NCBI GenBank assembly: GCA_937998305.1
Contig: CALLDL010000033.1
Coordinates: 6,094 to 70,093 of the forward strand
Source of the DNA: an uncultured Desulfobacterales bacterium
GTDB lineage: Bacteria; Desulfobacterota; Desulfobacteria; Desulfobacterales; UBA11574
DNA: 64,000 bases
Direction of reading: 5' to 3'
Within the stretch, counting starts at the first letter, position 1. The number at the start of each line of letters is the position of its first letter. Shown here piece after piece: positions 31,476 through 64,000 of the stretch. Both the position numbers and the translations under genes were made by a program. The notes beneath the pieces are model-generated. The model ran no database searches. It had not been told where the DNA came from and was given only the letters and a program-made list of their open reading frames with translations.

Positions 31476-31967
31476 TCAATTCTCTTCGTTAAGCTTCACC
31501 CAGTTTTCGTCTGCCTTCTTTATAAATTCGTCGCCTTTTTCAGCAAATTTGTCTCTACCGTCCATGTTCCAGTTTAGATACAGTTTTCCATCGATAATTT
31601 TAAAAGCCTCAGGATCTACACCAGCAACCTGACCGGTTGCCGCTAAGCTCCCCGCTCAGTATCCCCCATATTTCGGGGCATAGCGGTCAGGATCAGCGAT
31701 AAAAAGATCCCGATTTTCAGCACTGGCAAAATACCACTTGGCATCATTCCAATTGTAAGAGAACTTGCCTCTGCCTTTCACTGCACGTCCTTCTTTAAAA
31801 TACGCAACGGTGTCGTATCCTTTAATCGCAACGCCAAGTATGTTGGTATTAATCTTCTTTTTTAAGGGTTTAGCATTCACCCACGCTGGTAGAGCTCCTG
31901 CCAGAACGACGGCCAACAAAAAGCCCAGAGTAACTTTTGAAACTTTATTTGAGCTTATATTTATCAT
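31476..31967 (-). CDS. periplasmic YHS-type domain selenoprotein (in-frame UGA = Sec at 31656-31658)
   Basis: The track ORF stops at ...YAPKYGGY. Read-through gives U-AGSLAATGQVAGVDPEAFKIIDGKLYLNWNMDGRDKFAEKGDEFIKKADENWVKLNEEN and ends at TGA 31476-31478. Cys-containing family members read GGYC at this point. A hairpin follows the UGA. Confidence 0.8.
31622..31642 (-). promoter_or_regulatory. SECIS-like hairpin downstream of UGA
   Basis: RNA CGGCAACC-GGUCA-GGUUGCUG: an 8-bp stem with a GGUC-containing apical loop, starting 14 nt after the UGA. Confidence 0.65.
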
Positions 31968-57817: not shown

Positions 57818-59062
57818 ATGAAGGATAAAAATGTGTTGATTATCGGTGGCGGCGTGGCCGGCCTTTCTGCGGCGGTCGAACTCGCCGATTTAGATGTCCA
57901 AGTTGAATTAATTGAAAAATCAAATTTTCTGGGCGGACACGCCATCGGGTATGCCTGTAAGGCCATTAACGATACCTGCGTAAAGTGTGGCGCATGCATG
58001 GTGGAAGAAAGATTGCAACGCGCGGTTTCTCACCCAAACATAAAAATATTGCCCGGCAGTCAGGTACAAAACATATTTAAAAACCATCGATTCTCAGCAA
58101 GTCTCCGCCAAGAACCTCTGCATATAGATTCCAAGAAGTGCACCAACTGCGGGTTGTGTTTGGATCGTTGCCCGGCAGATGGGGCTGTTCTTCAAGGTTT
58201 TTCAAAAAACAACATCCCATTTTATGCAATTTCTGAAGAAAAATGCCTTTATCTCAAAGACAAATCCTGCAGCATCTGCCGGGATGAATGCCCTGAAACG
58301 GCCATTGATCTGGACAATGAAGAATTTGAACATTCCATTGAAGCAGATGCTGTATTGATTGCTACCGGATTCAAACCGTTCGATCCTAAAGACAAACCAT
58401 ACGGGTTTGGGCTTTTTAAAAATGTTGTTACCGGTCTGGACCTGGAAAGGATGATAAAACGGACCGGATGTGTAAAAAAGCCAAGCGATAACAAAACACC
58501 GGGACTAATCGCCTTCATACAGTGTGTGGGTTCAAGAGATTCAAAGCTGAATCATCTGTGGTGCTCGAAGGTTTGTTGCAGTTCGGCATTGCGGACGTCA
58601 CGGCTGATCAGAGAAAGGCATCCGGAAACCGAAATCACCTTCTTTTATATGGATGTGCAGACATTCGGAAAGGATTTCGAACCATTTTATGAAGAGACTC
58701 AAAAAGAAATTCGAATGATACGCGCCATTCCCGGAGATATCTACGAAACAGACGGGCAGCATCTGAAAGTAAATTATATAGATAACCATTCGCATAAAAC
58801 TCTGGAAGAAATTTTTGATCTGGTGGTGTTGTCCATCGGAATCACACCGTGTGAAGATATTCAAACCATATCTGGATTATTGGGGATAGAACCTGATGAC
58901 ACCGGGTTTGTCAAAACCGATGATAAAAAGACATCGGCTTTTGTTAATGGCATATTTGCTGCAGGAACCGTCCAGGGACCCATGAGCATTGCGGACACCA
59001 TTGCCAGCGCCGGGAGTGCTGCGTGGAAGATCGCCAGATATCTTGGCCTGAAAATTTCTTAA
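57818..59062 (+). CDS. HdrA-like FAD/Fe-S oxidoreductase (heterodisulfide reductase subunit A family)
   Basis: VLIIGGGVAGLSAAVELA. Inserted ferredoxin motifs CTNCGLCLDRCP and CSICRDECP. CVGSRD...CSKVCC. Confidence 0.8.
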   Translation: MKDKNVLIIGGGVAGLSAAVELADLDVQVELIEKSNFLGGHAIGYACKAINDTCVKCGACMVEERLQRAVSHPNIKILPGSQVQNIFKNHRFSASLRQEPLHIDSKKCTNCGLCLDRCPADGAVLQGFSKNNIPFYAISEEKCLYLKDKSCSICRDECPETAIDLDNEEFEHSIEADAVLIATGFKPFDPKDKPYGFGLFKNVVTGLDLERMIKRTGCVKKPSDNKTPGLIAFIQCVGSRDSKLNHLWCSKVCCSSALRTSRLIRERHPETEITFFYMDVQTFGKDFEPFYEETQKEIRMIRAIPGDIYETDGQHLKVNYIDNHSHKTLEEIFDLVVLSIGITPCEDIQTISGLLGIEPDDTGFVKTDDKKTSAFVNGIFAAGTVQGPMSIADTIASAGSAAWKIARYLGLKIS

Positions 59063-59180: not shown

Positions 59181-60365
59181 TCAACGGACAATGGCAAATC
59201 CGAGACGCAGCGCTTCTGTTCGATCCCTATAATTGAGTAGACTTTCCGCCAGAGCGTTGACATACTGAGCCTGAAAGTACAGGTTGAGATTTTTAAATAT
59301 AAAACGATGCAGCGGGTAGGTTAGATCGAGCTCGATGGAACCGCCTTCCTTTGCCCAGCGAAAATGGGATCCCAGAACAAAACTGTCTGCCTTACCTAAT
59401 TTTGTCTCCAGATCGAAATAGCCTCTGTAATATTTCAAGTCAGGGTTTGTTTCGTCTTGGTTGGAAATATAGGCCCAAATCTTCGGCGCAATCATTATGC
59501 CCAGTTTGGTATTCTTATCGTAGGCAATATATATGGGCTTGATATACAAAAAGTTGGTGCTCCGTGAATCTTCCCCTCCACGGCCGTTGGATTCATGTTG
59601 AAAACCGCCCTTCACAAAGAATCCTCTGGCCCATGGAACTCCGATATTGGGCGACAGAAAAAAAAATTCCGGCTTATAGCTGGTGTCTTCAAATGGTTTG
59701 GATTCTGATTTCAGATCCCAGAAAGATGTCTGGGTGTAAGCAAAATGGAAACCCTTTACCCATGGATATTTTTTTCCCAAGGTGCTCTCGGGATTGAAAA
59801 AACGATATTTGAAACTGAATTGAAACTTGCTTTTTTCGGGGTTGGTTCCAACGAGAAAATACATAGGTTGGTATGCCGCGATATTTTTTAAATACGGCTG
59901 ATACAGCTCATAAAGTGAGTCCAATGTGTCAAATTCCTGATATGCAATTTCATCGCTTTTCGACTCTTCAAGTGAAGAGGTGCTGTGGACCGCAAACATG
60001 GTACGGGCGTTTTCAAAATCCGGTATTGCCATGGTAACTGCGCCTTCAATGGTTGAGGGAAGGGCCAGTGTGTATTGCACTTTTTCAAAACAACCCGCAC
60101 AAATGATGATCTTGTCTTTGGATGTCGACAGTACAGAATATGCTTTTACATCCAAGGATTGATCATTAGCGGTTAAACGGCAAATAATACTGTCCGGCAC
60201 ATCCACTTGCACAGACTTATCTTCTGAATTGTGAAAGTACACGGCAAACACCGTCGTTTGTCCGGCCTGAAGATTTTTTTTCGGAGGATCGATAACCGTT
60301 TCGATACCACCGGCAAATGAAATCGTGCTAAAAAGAATGATCAACAAGGCTGTAAAAGCTTTCAT
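59181..60365 (-). CDS. pldA: outer-membrane phospholipase A (PldA/OMPLA-like) with an N-terminal extra domain
   Basis: Signal peptide present. Catalytic context GGFQHESNGRGGEDSRSTNFLY (HxSNG). YTQTSFWDL. Confidence 0.75.
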   Translation of the reverse strand: MKAFTALLIILFSTISFAGGIETVIDPPKKNLQAGQTTVFAVYFHNSEDKSVQVDVPDSIICRLTANDQSLDVKAYSVLSTSKDKIIICAGCFEKVQYTLALPSTIEGAVTMAIPDFENARTMFAVHSTSSLEESKSDEIAYQEFDTLDSLYELYQPYLKNIAAYQPMYFLVGTNPEKSKFQFSFKYRFFNPESTLGKKYPWVKGFHFAYTQTSFWDLKSESKPFEDTSYKPEFFFLSPNIGVPWARGFFVKGGFQHESNGRGGEDSRSTNFLYIKPIYIAYDKNTKLGIMIAPKIWAYISNQDETNPDLKYYRGYFDLETKLGKADSFVLGSHFRWAKEGGSIELDLTYPLHRFIFKNLNLYFQAQYVNALAESLLNYRDRTEALRLGFAIVR

Positions 60366-60568: not shown

Positions 60569-62191
60569 ATGGAAAATCAAATTTTGAAAAGGCGGGCGAT
60601 TTTGAATAAAAAAATATTTATATTTGGAAACGGATCGTGTGCCCATCACCTTGCCAAAGAATTTCTGTCTTCGGGCGTAGATGTTATCCTTGCCACTTCA
60701 GATAAAACAGCTGATGTTTCTTCAACCATGGATTCTGTGGCATTGGAAATCCTCACCAACACAAAACTCCTTTCGTGCCAGGGGATTGTGGGGAATTTCA
60801 GGCTGACTGTAGTTTGCAATGGTGAAAGAGTAACAAAACGTGTTGCTGAAATTATTATTGCTGAAGAAGATCGGCGAAAACCGAATTTCTCGTTGTATGG
60901 TTTAAAGGCGGCTTCTAACGTTATCAGTCAATCCCAAATGAAAACGTTGCTGTTGGGATCATCACATGAAAAAAACATCCTTTCAGAAGCAAAAACGGTA
61001 GGTTTTTTTACCGGGCTTGTTAACGAAAGCCATCCGGTTGTCGCAGAAGAAATTATGCATTTGGCGCTTAACCTCCAGTCTGACTTTAATGTACAAACAT
61101 ATATCCTAACTAAAAATCTCAAAGTCGCAGGAAACGGTCTTGAAGCCCTTTATCGAAAAAGCAAAAAAGCCGGTGCAGTTTATATTAAGTTTACAGACAA
61201 TATTCCCGCCATCCACCAGAAAAGGGATAACGATATCCAAATCGAGTTCATCGACGAAATAACAACCAAAAAATTCAGACTGTCTCCGGATATAACGGTT
61301 GTAGATGAAACCATCGTTCCTTTTGAAAATGCTGCCCATCTTGCAGGGATATTGAATGTCGATACCGATCCTGGTGGATTTGTTCAGACGGATAATGTTC
61401 ATAGATATTGTGTGTTGACGAACAGAAAAGGGATTATGGCGGCAGGTCCTTCAAGAAGTATTCAGAATCGGGGTGATCAGATAATGGATGCTGAAAACGT
61501 TGCGCTTGCATCCGCCGGTATTCTGGTGGACCGATTGGCGCTGACAGCAGACAGGGCTGAAGTTGACACGGGACAGTGCATACGGTGTCTGACCTGCTAT
61601 CGTCTTTGTCCATACCATGCAATAACACTGAACACTCGGGTGACGGTTGTACCGGATGCCTGCGAACGGTGCGGCATTTGTGCCGCCCAATGCCCAAGGG
61701 GCGCTGTCCGTATAAAAGATCTTGAACCTGGGTCGGTCTTAGATGTGATTAAAATCGGCGACCCCATTCAAACCGAAAAGGCGTTTACGCCCTCTATTGT
61801 GGCGTTCTGCTGCAGCCGCTCGTCTGCCCAGGCCGGTGATCTGGCGCTGTGCATGGGCCATAACCTGCCTTCGGGGTTAAAGATCATTGAGGTGCCATGT
61901 GCGGGGAGTATATCTTATGATCACATCTTTGCAGCGTTTAGAAACCATGCTGACGGAGTTCTTGTGGCGACCTGCCATAAAGGAAACTGTCATTCAGAAC
62001 GGGGGAACATTTTTGCAGAACAAACTGTGGAACAGATAAAGGAGGTGTTCTCTCAAATCGGTTTTGAAAATGATCGTTTGCTTATACAAACCCTTGCGTC
62101 CAATATGGGAACGGAATTTGCTCAGATTGTAAATCGCTTTGAAGAGACCATTGTGGAGCTCGGCCCAAGCCGGCTTAAGAAGAATCAATAG
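60569..62191 (+). CDS. fusion protein: HdrA-like Rossmann-type N-terminal region, 2x[4Fe-4S] ferredoxin domain, and MvhD (hydrogenase iron-sulfur subunit D) domain
   Basis: CIRCLTCYRLCP and CERCGICAAQCP. MvhD-like C-terminus IVAFCCSRS...EVPCAGSISYDHIFAAFRNHADGVLVATCHKGNCH. Confidence 0.75.
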   Translation: MENQILKRRAILNKKIFIFGNGSCAHHLAKEFLSSGVDVILATSDKTADVSSTMDSVALEILTNTKLLSCQGIVGNFRLTVVCNGERVTKRVAEIIIAEEDRRKPNFSLYGLKAASNVISQSQMKTLLLGSSHEKNILSEAKTVGFFTGLVNESHPVVAEEIMHLALNLQSDFNVQTYILTKNLKVAGNGLEALYRKSKKAGAVYIKFTDNIPAIHQKRDNDIQIEFIDEITTKKFRLSPDITVVDETIVPFENAAHLAGILNVDTDPGGFVQTDNVHRYCVLTNRKGIMAAGPSRSIQNRGDQIMDAENVALASAGILVDRLALTADRAEVDTGQCIRCLTCYRLCPYHAITLNTRVTVVPDACERCGICAAQCPRGAVRIKDLEPGSVLDVIKIGDPIQTEKAFTPSIVAFCCSRSSAQAGDLALCMGHNLPSGLKIIEVPCAGSISYDHIFAAFRNHADGVLVATCHKGNCHSERGNIFAEQTVEQIKEVFSQIGFENDRLLIQTLASNMGTEFAQIVNRFEETIVELGPSRLKKNQ

Positions 62192-62297
62192 CCGGAAAAT
62201 CCAGCGTCGTCCAAATCATGAAAGGGAATATAGGAAACAGGATAGGGGAAATAGGAAAGAGGTCGGCTGAGGGTATAACGTTAAATGAGGTAGTCAT

Positions 62298-63521
62298 ATG
62301 ACATCACCATCTGAAATCATCGATATGGATCAACTCGATCACACCAGATGTAGAACCTGGCCGTTTTCCCAAGATTTTTGCGTGACTTGCGGCCTGTGTG
62401 CAAGTTCTTGTCCGGCTTCTGGAATCGATGGATTTGACCCGCGCATGCTGGTCCGAATGGTTTCTCTGGGATTTGTCGAGGATCTGGTAAACGCCCGATG
62501 GCCGTGGATATGCACCATGTGCGGTAAATGCGAAAATGTTTGTCCCATGCAGGTCGACATTGCCGATCTGATACGAAAAATTCGATCCAAAAGAGAACGT
62601 GAAAAGGTTCCGGGAATTTTACACAAGGGTCTTGCGGCGGCTTTGGAGACCGGCAATAATCTTCGCCTGCCAAAGGAAGATTTTATGTTCATCATCGAGG
62701 ATGTGGCCGAAGAAGTCGCCGAGGAACCTGGTTTTGAAGGGTTCAAAGCGCCCATTGACAAAAAGGGGGCAAACATACTGACCACCATACACAACAAACT
62801 GGTAAATACCCATACCGAAGATTTAAAACACTGGTGGAAGATTTTTCATGCGGCCAAAGAAGACTGGACCGTAACCTCGGAAAACTGGGAGGGTACCAAC
62901 TGGGGATATTTTACGGGTGACGATGATGCCATGAAGGTCATGGTCGGCCGGATCGTGGAGCAGATGAAGCGACTGGAAATAAAAAATCTTCTTTGCCCTG
63001 AATGAGGTCACTCCTATCTTGCGACCCGGTCGGGTCTTGAAAAATATTATCCTGAAGCACTCAAAAAAATTAGTGTGACCACGGTTTTTGACCTAATGAT
63101 CAAATATATTAAAGAAGGTCGCATCAAACTCGACAAATCGAGATTTATACAACTTGCCGCTTATCACGACCCATGTAATTACGGGAGAAAGGCCCAGAAG
63201 CATTTTGGACACGGTTATTTTGACGAGCCGCGCTGGATTATGGATCAGTGCCTTGAAAACTGGGTCGATCTTTATCCCAATAGAATGGATCAAATATGCT
63301 GTGGCGGGGGCGGTGGAACCATGACCACCGGATATAACGATGAACGTGTTTTTTATGCCAGAAAAAAAATCGATCAGATCAGGGCCACAGGGGCAAAGCT
63401 GATTGTGGTTCCCTGCCACAGTTGCCACGGTCAGTTTAATAATGTGAAATCCGAATACGATTTTGATGATCTTGAAGTGAAGTATCTGTGGGAACTGGTG
63501 GCCGACTGCCTGATTTTATAA
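62298..63521 (+). CDS. HdrD/GlpC-like Fe-S (2x[4Fe-4S] plus CCG-domain) selenoprotein; in-frame UGA = Sec at 63003-63005
   Basis: Track ORFs 62298..63005 and 63075..63521 are in the same frame, and the only stop between them is one TGA. N-terminal part: CVTCGLCASSCP and CTMCGKCENVCP. C-terminal part: CCGGGGG and VVPCHSCHGQ. The junction reads LLCPE-U-GHSYLA. A hairpin follows. Confidence 0.8.
63023..63036 (+). promoter_or_regulatory. SECIS-like hairpin downstream of UGA
   Basis: GACCC-GGTC-GGGTC, with 17 nt separating it from the UGA. The apical GGUC matches the hairpin after the other UGA (31622-31642). Confidence 0.6.
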
Positions 63522-63522
63522 C

Positions 63523-63909
63523 TTAAGTTTTTTGAGCTTCTCTCTTTGTGCAATCCGGACAAAATCCTTCAAATTCAAGCCGGTGCCCAATTATGGAAAA
63601 AACGGTGGCACCGTAAAGCTCATCTTCCAGTTTATTCAACGGCGCAATGGGAGCATTATCTACCTTTCCACAGCATAAGCACCGGATATGGTAATGTTTA
63701 TTCGGATTCCAATCAAATCTTTTAATGGTTCCGCCAAGTTCCAGTTTCTGTATTATCCCCATATTAGCAAGGACCTCCAGATTTCTATAAACCGTACCCA
63801 GACTGATACGGGGGAGCTGTTTTCTAACCGATTCATAGATTTCGTCAGCACTGGGATGGGAATTTGTTTGTCTTAAAATATTAAGAATCGTTTTCCGCTG
63901 GAGCGTCAT
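63523..63909 (-). CDS. Fur-family metalloregulator (Fur/PerR/Zur type)
   Basis: MTLQRKTILNILRQTNSHPSADEIYESVRKQLPRISLGTVYRNLEVLANMGIIQ...HYHIRCLCCGKV...CPDC. ATG at 63909 is preferred over the TTG at 63933. Confidence 0.85.
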   Translation of the reverse strand: MTLQRKTILNILRQTNSHPSADEIYESVRKQLPRISLGTVYRNLEVLANMGIIQKLELGGTIKRFDWNPNKHYHIRCLCCGKVDNAPIAPLNKLEDELYGATVFSIIGHRLEFEGFCPDCTKREAQKT

Positions 63910-64000
63910 CCTACGGGATATTTTTTCAGGCAAAACGTTTTTGTCCTTTTCTTTATAAAAATGAAAAAATTTTTAATAAATGACTTGACTAATGAATCCC

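Follow-up and report, generated by a model that had tools for sequence, protein, structure and literature searches.

The window, a 64,000-nucleotide stretch of contig CALLDL010000033.1 (assembly GCA_937998305.1, positions 6,094 to 70,093) from an uncultured Desulfobacterales bacterium, contains near its 3′ end two forward-strand open reading frames (ORFs) that share one frame. The first, 62298..63005, encodes 235 aa and is terminated by TGA 63003-63005. The second, 63075..63521, encodes 148 aa and opens with a GTG, and the 69 nt between them (63006-63074) contain no stop in the shared frame. An initial annotation, made from the letters alone, had joined these fragments into one HdrD/GlpC-like Fe-S selenoprotein gene by reading the UGA as selenocysteine (Sec, U), and each structural element of that proposal was found again on reading the sequence. 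The first half carries two CxxCxxCxxxCP ferredoxin motifs (C28xxC31xxC34xxxC38P and C72xxC75xxC78xxxC82P), and the second half carries an I-CC-GGGGG motif with C334 and C335, its CCGGGGG occupying residues 334-340; Pfam agrees with both. The junction reads NLLCPE-U-GHSYLATRSG. The GTG at 63075 is preceded by cactcaaaaaaatta, in which no Shine-Dalgarno sequence is found. Together with the comparative data described below, these features make it very probable that 62298-63521 is one Sec-encoding gene for a 407-residue selenoprotein.

Scanning a single genome from each species gave 80 loci that match query residues ~1-407 with 70-95% amino acid identity. The set consists mostly of Desulfobacterales metagenome-assembled genomes, and includes Desulfatirhabdium butyrativorans, Desulfocicer vacuolatum, a Desulfonema and an Olavius symbiont. 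Counts out of 80 refer hereafter to 79 of these loci plus the window, and counts for the hairpin to 81 sequences. All 80 genes contain exactly one in-frame stop, which is always TGA, occupies one and the same column of the alignment and is flanked as [W/C]PE-U-GH[A/S]YLATR. In the remaining, eightieth locus (L027), the tblastn coordinates show the frame to be broken in the 5′ part, yet the locus retains the same CPE-TGA-GH junction and the hairpin. No close orthologue with cysteine at this position was present among the best 80 genome loci, all of which are of the Sec type.

The sequence downstream of the UGA is conserved as coding sequence. Mean column identity is 0.81 over the 23 codons from the UGA to the GTG of the window, and 0.80 and 0.82 in the flanks on either side. 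The column of that GTG is mostly Phe in the orthologues, and no start codon is conserved at any column downstream of the UGA, the best column reaching 16/80. These data bear directly on the possibility that the UGA is a genuine stop, followed by a separately initiated 148-aa CCG subunit behind a 235-aa HdrC-like protein. Such an arrangement would agree with the two genes annotated by public gene callers and would resemble the HdrC and HdrB of methanogens, which are separate polypeptides. It is nevertheless highly improbable for this locus: TGA is invariant, whereas the terminal stops of the same 80 genes are a mixture of TAA (34), TAG (25) and TGA (21); the 23 supposedly intergenic codons are as conserved as their flanks; the GTG is neither conserved nor served by a Shine-Dalgarno sequence; an HdrB-like fold would be severed in the middle of its first half; and homologues read through the position with Cys. 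A pseudogene, or a sequencing or assembly error in a Cys-type gene, is suggested by the single base that separates TGA from TGC or TGT, but it is the least credible of the alternatives, given that the same TGA recurs in 79 independent assemblies of different species, that purifying selection is seen on both sides of it, and that the frame is intact in 79 of the 80 loci, L027 being the exception. The combination of variable terminal stops, an invariant TGA, a conserved spacer and the lack of a conserved start thus argues against a stop with second initiation, a pseudogene and a sequencing error alike. The orthologues support the single read-through gene, and do not show what the initial annotation had named as the contrary outcome, namely homologues that end here ahead of a second gene with its own start.

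In the window, the residue three positions before the Sec is also a Cys, so that C233-P-E-U236 resembles a CxxU redox motif. As a family feature this motif was rejected: codon 233 (62994-62996) encodes Cys only in the window, L001, L002 and L027, and Trp in the other 77 sequences. C233 may serve as a resolving cysteine specific to this lineage, or the change may be neutral.

More distant homologues reveal which amino acid corresponds to the UGA. A profile search of 1.84 billion cluster representatives identified 8,156 relatives, and 49 diverse, full-length ones (23-43% identity) were aligned. The UGA column is occupied by Cys in 44 of them, by Ser in three, and by Ala and Asp in one each, and the Cys of the 44 sits in a conserved tECGH motif. 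In addition, a word-indexed protein search gave two types of matches. The first consists of ~235-aa fragments with 77-95% identity, which are the same gene cut by gene callers; the second consists of full-length proteins of 450-513 aa with ~50% identity and an N-terminal helix-turn-helix (HTH) domain. In 20 of these HTH-fused paralogues, the column holds Cys (11), Ser (5), or one each of Leu, Gly, Ile and Ala. The initial annotation had expected Cys at this position in Cys-type homologues and had called for an alignment of the read-through protein as a check; in that alignment, most of the distant homologues have Cys in the UGA column. Moreover, among the best 150 library representatives, 13 end precisely one profile position ahead of the column, and the eight of these ends that were examined read ...LLLPE, ...LMYPE, ...ILYPE, ...LLWPE or ...LVLPE. 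Representatives ending in ...[LWY]PE just before the column suggest that Sec is used in several sub-lineages, HTH-fused ones included, which indicates several putative Sec lineages in the wider family.

The HTH-fused group includes P0050, P0054, P0066, P0067, P0071, P0086, P0095, P0102 and P0107 (alignment A1), together with P0122. Their HTH is an N-terminal MerR/excisionase-type domain fused to an HdrD-like body, and these paralogues may be redox-sensing regulators. At least one of them, P0122, ends at the Sec/Cys column and is hence probably of the Sec type. The HTH paralogues retain a Cys at query position 228, which is missing from the Sec orthologues. By the genetic code alone, Ser, Leu and Gly each have a codon one base from UGA (UCA, UUA and GGA).

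Immediately 3′ of the UGA, the mRNA can form the hairpin GACCC/GGUC/GGGUC, which is separated from the UGA by 17 nt to the stem and by 22 nt to the loop (63006-63027), so that it begins at the 18th nucleotide, exactly where it had been placed. The published model of the bacterial selenocysteine insertion sequence (SECIS) describes a loop of 3-9 nt above an upper stem that has 4-16 bp, a G at loop position 1 or 2 that is usually followed by G or U, a distance of 16-37 nt from the UGA to the apical loop, and a minimum free energy of -7.5 kcal/mol or lower (PMC13188914). The hairpin of the window agrees with this description in all four respects, with a 4-nt GGUC loop on a 5-bp stem and a spacing of 22 nt. 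Its loop opens with G-G-U, of which G26 and G27 are invariant and T28 is present in at least 90% of an alignment of 26 sequences. The calculated energy of the 21-nt hairpin is -8.5 kcal/mol in the window; the A:U variants of its relatives reach only -6.3 kcal/mol over the same short segment.

The comparative data show that this hairpin is maintained. At the pair that closes the loop, 38 of the sequences have C:G and 31 have A:U, mismatched combinations occur in only three, and nine are register-shift variants (AACCC-GGUCC-GGGUU), which still fold. In the 26-sequence alignment, 89% of the cells are paired; none of 500 shuffles attained the pairing or the covariation score of the real alignment, and slid controls collapsed. 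On a neighbour-joining tree built with the hairpin codons left out, the closing pair switched between C:G and A:U at least four times independently, and both underlying changes are synonymous (CGG/AGG for Arg and UCG/UCU for Ser). Codon usage points in the same direction. Thr243 is ACC and Arg244 is NGG in 80/80, the ten other conserved Thr and the ten other conserved Arg columns have mixed codons, and NGG accounts for 36% of the Arg codons gene-wide; synonymous sites are frozen in the hairpin codons only. The divergent lineage L084, with a YPE-U junction, has the hairpin CAACCC-GGUCA-GGGUUG at the same offset. It is on these comparative data, and not on the folding energy, that the hairpin is judged to be more than chance, and we propose that it is a SelB-binding SECIS directing Sec insertion. 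GGUC is also the apical loop of the Escherichia coli fdhF SECIS, a coding-region hairpin just 3′ of the UGA, where the G-U of the loop is needed for SelB binding. On the other hand, the fdhF loop begins ~18 nt past the UGA, as compared to 22 nt in the window gene, whose 5-bp stem has no evident bulged U.

RNAalifold recovered only the three central pairs from the 26 sequences, because the register-shift variant AACCC-GGUCC-GGGUU disrupts the column alignment. A longer fold, 62995-63070, in which the UGA region pairs with the 5′ arm of the hairpin (-13.2 kcal/mol, z = -0.43), was rejected as not significant; its GGUC/GACC pairing is not conserved, since most orthologues read GGG-CAC after the UGA.

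The initial annotation had also pointed to a second candidate UGA in the window followed by a hairpin with a similar loop, and this was recovered on the minus strand. The gene 31476-31967 (minus), which the ORF finder gave as 103 + 59 codons, contains UGA 31658-31656 in the junction ...KYGGY-U-AGSLAATG and encodes a YHS-domain protein with a signal peptide. It scores 149.9 bits against the NCBIfam profile NF041384, 'YHS domain-containing (seleno)protein', for which the cut-off is 70. Its hairpin (~31642-31622) has 8 bp and a GGUCA loop, lies 21 nt after the UGA and folds at -18.1 kcal/mol over 43 nt (z = -2.86). The presence of this second selenoprotein gene supports Sec use by the organism indirectly. 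Among the cultured, related Desulfobacteraceae, Desulfobacterium autotrophicum carries selA-D (PMC2702500) and Desulfococcus multivorans carries selA, selB and selD (PMC5109826). Within recognisable genes of the window, these two in-frame UGAs are the only ones; a scan for frames of at least 80 codons gave two further TGA-joined frames, which match no recognisable gene.

The inserted amino acid cannot be read from the sequence alone, which leaves room for a UGA that is translated but not as Sec, either under an alternative code (UGA as Trp or Gly) or by near-cognate read-through with Cys or Trp. We regard this as very unlikely. UGA serves as the terminal stop in 21 of the 80 orthologous genes, recognisable genes of the window contain just two in-frame UGAs, and both of these are followed at SECIS distance by a hairpin with a GGUC(A) loop; furthermore, homologues align Cys and not Trp or Gly, and a selenoprotein family with the same UGH motif is documented. 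Decoding of the UGA as Sec is therefore the reading retained for the features listed in Table 1.

Table 1. Features of the predicted selenoprotein gene and its two upstream partners (window coordinates)
Feature	Position	Strand	Description
HdrA-like FAD (flavin adenine dinucleotide)/Fe-S flavoprotein	57818..59062	+	414 aa, Cys-type, first of the conserved trio; Pfam Pyr_redox_2 + Fer4; NCBIfam HdrA2 profile positions 139-559; upstream in 63/80 loci
Upstream partner, C-terminal part of HdrA fused to an MvhD/FlpD domain	60569..62191	+	540 aa, Cys-type; Pfam FlpD E = 2.8e-36; NCBIfam HdrA2 profile positions 421-774; immediate upstream neighbour of the selenoprotein gene in 75/80 loci
Shine-Dalgarno GAGG	62287..62290	+	7 nt 5′ of ATG 62298; read from the sequence
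Predicted selenoprotein gene, HdrD-like Fe-S, complete	62298..63521	+	407 codons + TAA stop; Sec = codon 236; one internal TGA; orthologues of 79 genomes cover residues 1-407 of the query in a single frame; full-length Cys homologues
HdrC-like ferredoxin domain	62373..62558	+	Two CxxCxxCxxxCP, 8 Cys invariant in 80/80; Pfam Fer4_8/Fer4_17 aa 26-87; best PDB matches HdrC chains 8rvv_C and 5odc_C
Degenerate N-terminal CCG-like half of the HdrB-like module	62745..63032	+	Cluster-ligand Cys lost save the Sec position; no Cys at aa 83-235 in 80 orthologues
UGA predicted to be read as selenocysteine (U236), motif PE-U-GH	63003..63005	+	TGA in 80/80 orthologues with variable terminal stops; Cys in 44/49 distant homologues; agrees with the UGH Sec motif of the literature and with (T/G)ECGH, the motif of the proposed catalytic Cys
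Proposed bacterial SECIS hairpin	63023..63036	+	Stem 63023-63027/63032-63036 (5 bp), apical loop GGUC 63028-63031; -8.5 kcal/mol
Intact C-terminal CCG domain	63159..63437	+	C293, C334, C335, C373 and C376 invariant; Pfam PF02754 E = 2.2e-12, aa 288-380; HdrB matches; predicted noncubane [4Fe-4S] site

The predicted protein combines the parts of HdrC and HdrB in one chain. By sequence, PDB entries match as HdrC over aa 24-122 and as HdrB over aa 288-385, and the Mycobacterium smegmatis 'iron-sulfur-binding reductase' EtfD (9ojn) matches both halves; in the alignment with 9ojn_A, the Sec column stands opposite the first Cys of a CPHC motif. In the 80 Sec orthologues, Cys is invariant at the eight positions of the ferredoxin ligands, at the five of the CCG ligands and at Cys318. 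Residues 83 to 235 contain no Cys, so that nothing is left of the first CCG motif but the Sec. The NCBIfam profiles with the best matches are HmcF (1.8e-53, aa 15-403), TmcB and DsrK, which match over nearly the full length, with scores far below their equivalog cut-offs (182 vs 750 bits, 156.7 vs 735 and 141.8 vs 400, respectively). The GlpC profiles TIGR03379 and NF008369 score 20.7 vs 279.9 and 27.9 vs 278 bits, and match the ferredoxin part only.

A structure model was made for the Cys homologue P0105, which is 48% identical to the window protein (pLDDT, the predicted local distance difference test, 81; pTM, the predicted template modelling score, 0.78). It matches EtfD (E = 1.1e-12, 460 columns) and LutA, as well as HdrB chains over their whole length (~283 columns), and the Cys/Sec position is flanked in it by a strand and by the N-terminus of a helix. 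The match to whole HdrB chains implies that the HdrB-like module straddles the UGA and that neither ORF fragment is a complete domain, as had been stated of the two halves at the outset. Given the profile and structural matches, the protein is predicted to be HdrD-like, i.e. an HdrC + HdrB fusion, of the DsrK/HmcF/TmcB architectural type. The label GlpC/Hdr-type of the initial annotation holds insofar as the gene fits the known Sec family named Fe-S oxidoreductase (GlpC), but the profile scores are nearest to DsrK/HmcF/TmcB and not to GlpC proper.

Cys318 (codon 63249-63251, in MDQ-C-LENW) lies outside the five CCG ligands. It is invariant in 80/80 and almost so in the HTH paralogues, and is a candidate selenosulfide partner of the Sec.

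The 'Fe-S oxidoreductase (GlpC)' selenoproteins of the Deltaproteobacteria have been catalogued since the mid-2000s, beside hdrA, frhD, frhG and frhA in the published operon glpC-hdrA-frhD-frhG-frhA (PMC1794560). A member was reported from the Olavius symbionts (PMC1976440), and a 2026 review lists the family with the Sec motif 'UGH' (PMC13188914). The window gene shares with this family the ferredoxin-type and CCG domains, an in-frame UGA that aligns with Cys of homologues, the U-G-H motif, which is present in the window and in all orthologues, and a proposed SECIS behind it. As to the gene cluster, genes of the hdrA and frhD/mvhD type are present beside the window gene, but the published operon contains hydrogenase subunits, whereas the order in the window is hdrA-like, hdrA′/mvhD fusion and selenoprotein gene, and neither frhG nor frhA was seen. 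Desulfobacterium autotrophicum HRM2 has an annotated Sec-containing HdrD4 (PMC2702500), which by its description is likewise a soluble HdrD-type selenoprotein, with HdrC- and HdrB-homologous domains, from the Desulfobacteraceae. With every testable feature of the family present in its sequence, the window gene is assigned to the known Fe-S oxidoreductase (GlpC) Sec family and is not new, in line with the initial annotation, which had called the locus a mis-annotation trap rather than a new family.

The closest known architectures differ from the window protein in several ways. DsrK, HmcF and TmcB, which are HdrD-like catalytic subunits of membrane complexes in sulfate reducers, possess one CCG motif and keep, of the cluster that is missing, a single strictly conserved Cys within a (T/G)ECGH motif, and Cys329 of Archaeoglobus fulgidus DsrK was proposed to be essential for the reduction of the DsrC trisulfide or of a disulfide (PMC10861901). 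The window protein resembles them in its two cubane sites, its single complete C-terminal CCG and the lone (T/G)ECGH position, but it has Sec there (PE-U-GH), soluble HdrA-like and MvhD neighbours, and scores far below the cut-offs. As compared to the methanogen HdrABC (PDB 5odc, 8rvu and 7bkb), the N-terminal half is similar to HdrC in sequence and the C-terminal ~280 residues of the homologue model are similar to the whole of HdrB. HdrB, on the other hand, has two CCG motifs and two noncubane clusters, whereas the window protein is a fusion in which the first motif is a single Sec; two complete CCG motifs, as in methanogen-type HdrD/HdrB, are not present, the Pfam CCG match being confined to aa 288-380. 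EtfD of M. smegmatis is the best structural and profile match over both halves, but it is large and membrane-anchored, receives its electrons from the electron-transfer flavoprotein, is 19% identical, and has no reported Sec.

These comparisons suggest the following mechanism. SelB carrying Sec-tRNA(Sec) would bind the GGUC-loop hairpin, so that the UGA is decoded as Sec; the sequence signals described above are what point to this insertion. Since the Sec occupies the (T/G)ECGH position, we infer that its selenolate acts as the nucleophile or the redox partner of the single noncubane [4Fe-4S] cluster. To judge from gene order, electrons would be supplied by the co-encoded HdrA-like flavoprotein and the HdrA/MvhD fusion, and would cross the two cubane clusters to reach the noncubane cluster. 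The selenolate, facing this cluster, would attack a disulfide or trisulfide to form an Se-S intermediate, which the noncubane cluster would then reduce in one-electron steps. The substrate might, as a guess, be a DsrC-type or a low-molecular-weight disulfide.

A broader interpretation is conceivable, though doubtful. It holds that the Sec lineages single out the (T/G)ECGH residue as the catalytic nucleophile of all single-CCG HdrD-like reductases (DsrK, HmcF and TmcB), and that the soluble trio forms a cytoplasmic, possibly electron-bifurcating reductase of a DsrC-type trisulfide, or of another protein or low-molecular-weight disulfide, in parallel to the membrane-bound DsrMK. If so, the chemistry that methanogen HdrB performs with two clusters would be carried out by one selenolate together with one noncubane [4Fe-4S] cluster.

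Several observations weigh against a Sec-encoding gene with the proposed function. The 64-kb window contains no tRNA-Sec, and its 10 ORFs of the size of SelA, SelB or SelD encode unrelated proteins. The residue in the UGA column is often not Cys in the HTH-fused paralogues (9/20), suggesting that it is dispensable in some relatives. As a single sequence, the hairpin is about as stable as its shuffles (-10.7 kcal/mol over 43 nt, z = -0.79), and its stem is short. No SECIS match was obtained from Rfam, either with gathering thresholds on the whole window or by an E-value search of 62950-63120; this result carries little weight, because the comparative evidence for the hairpin is independent of it. 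The evidence for the fold comes from the model of a Cys homologue, P0105, and not of the window protein itself. Finally, the catalytic role of the ECGH residue is a proposal from the literature, and it is gene order that suggests the electron donors and the substrate.

Natural interchange of Sec and Cys is typical of redox-active catalytic residues. Given that the Sec lies exactly at the Cys of (T/G)ECGH, the family lends independent comparative support to the catalytic-Cys proposal (PMC10861901). The 2024 study of DsrMKJOP in which that proposal was made does not mention Sec (PMC10861901). The Sec and Cys forms of the family offer a natural pair with which the (T/G)ECGH proposal can be tested.

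The main importance of the gene lies in an annotation error that is widespread. Virtually every public gene call seen divides it into a 235-aa '4Fe-4S dicluster / HdrC' piece and a ~141-148-aa 'CCG' piece, including a named NCBI/nr entry from Desulfonema magnum and dozens of truncated clusters, which is the trap that had been anticipated for this locus. Owing to these split calls, metabolic reconstructions of Desulfobacterales miss a full-length HdrD-like enzyme. Although the family is known, it is still useful to see how extensive the mis-annotation is, and that the Sec of UGH can be linked to the catalytic-Cys proposal for ECGH.

The selenoprotein gene is the last of a conserved trio, in the order HdrA-like flavoprotein, HdrA/MvhD fusion and Sec-HdrD (Table 1). 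Its neighbours are these two genes, a phospholipase A1 gene and a Fur-family gene, and no gene for a membrane cytochrome b or complex partner is adjacent. In the window, the phospholipase A1 gene (59181-60365, minus) stands between the HdrA-like and HdrA/MvhD genes, and in the closest relatives compared (L001, L002, L005 and L006) it lies downstream of the selenoprotein gene, beside Fur; its placement looks like a local rearrangement within a three-gene cluster that is conserved in other respects. Not all relatives have the trio, as Sec-HdrD occurs without the upstream HdrA-like and MvhD genes in L032 (6001-7876, Desulfobacterales HSG2) and L077 (2891-4777, Desulfatirhabdium butyrativorans), where a small PocR sensory-domain gene follows it.

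The Fur-family regulator gene of the window (63523-63933, minus) is convergent with the selenoprotein gene. In relatives (L081, 13069-15700), the next gene encodes a hybrid-cluster protein (Prismane), and genes for peroxiredoxins are located upstream. These neighbours hint that the cluster has to do with oxidative or nitrosative stress. One peroxiredoxin gene of L081 (5571-6293), a few kb upstream of the Sec-HdrD cluster of this close relative, is called as 84 + 152 aa; the two pieces belong to a single ORF, whose active site carries an in-frame stop (GDFTFV-*-ATE) in place of the Cys of Cys-type peroxiredoxins. It is a predicted Sec-peroxiredoxin, and thus another mis-split selenoprotein. HdrC-like, HdrB-like and DsrE genes are located just upstream on the same contig.

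The closest relative of the window gene, L001 (CAXMTB010000009.1), shares 95% amino acid identity and the same neighbourhood with it. It is labelled 'uncultured Nitrospinaceae bacterium', while all other relatives belong to the Desulfobacterales or Thermodesulfobacteriota, and the L001 contig is probably mis-binned or mislabelled.

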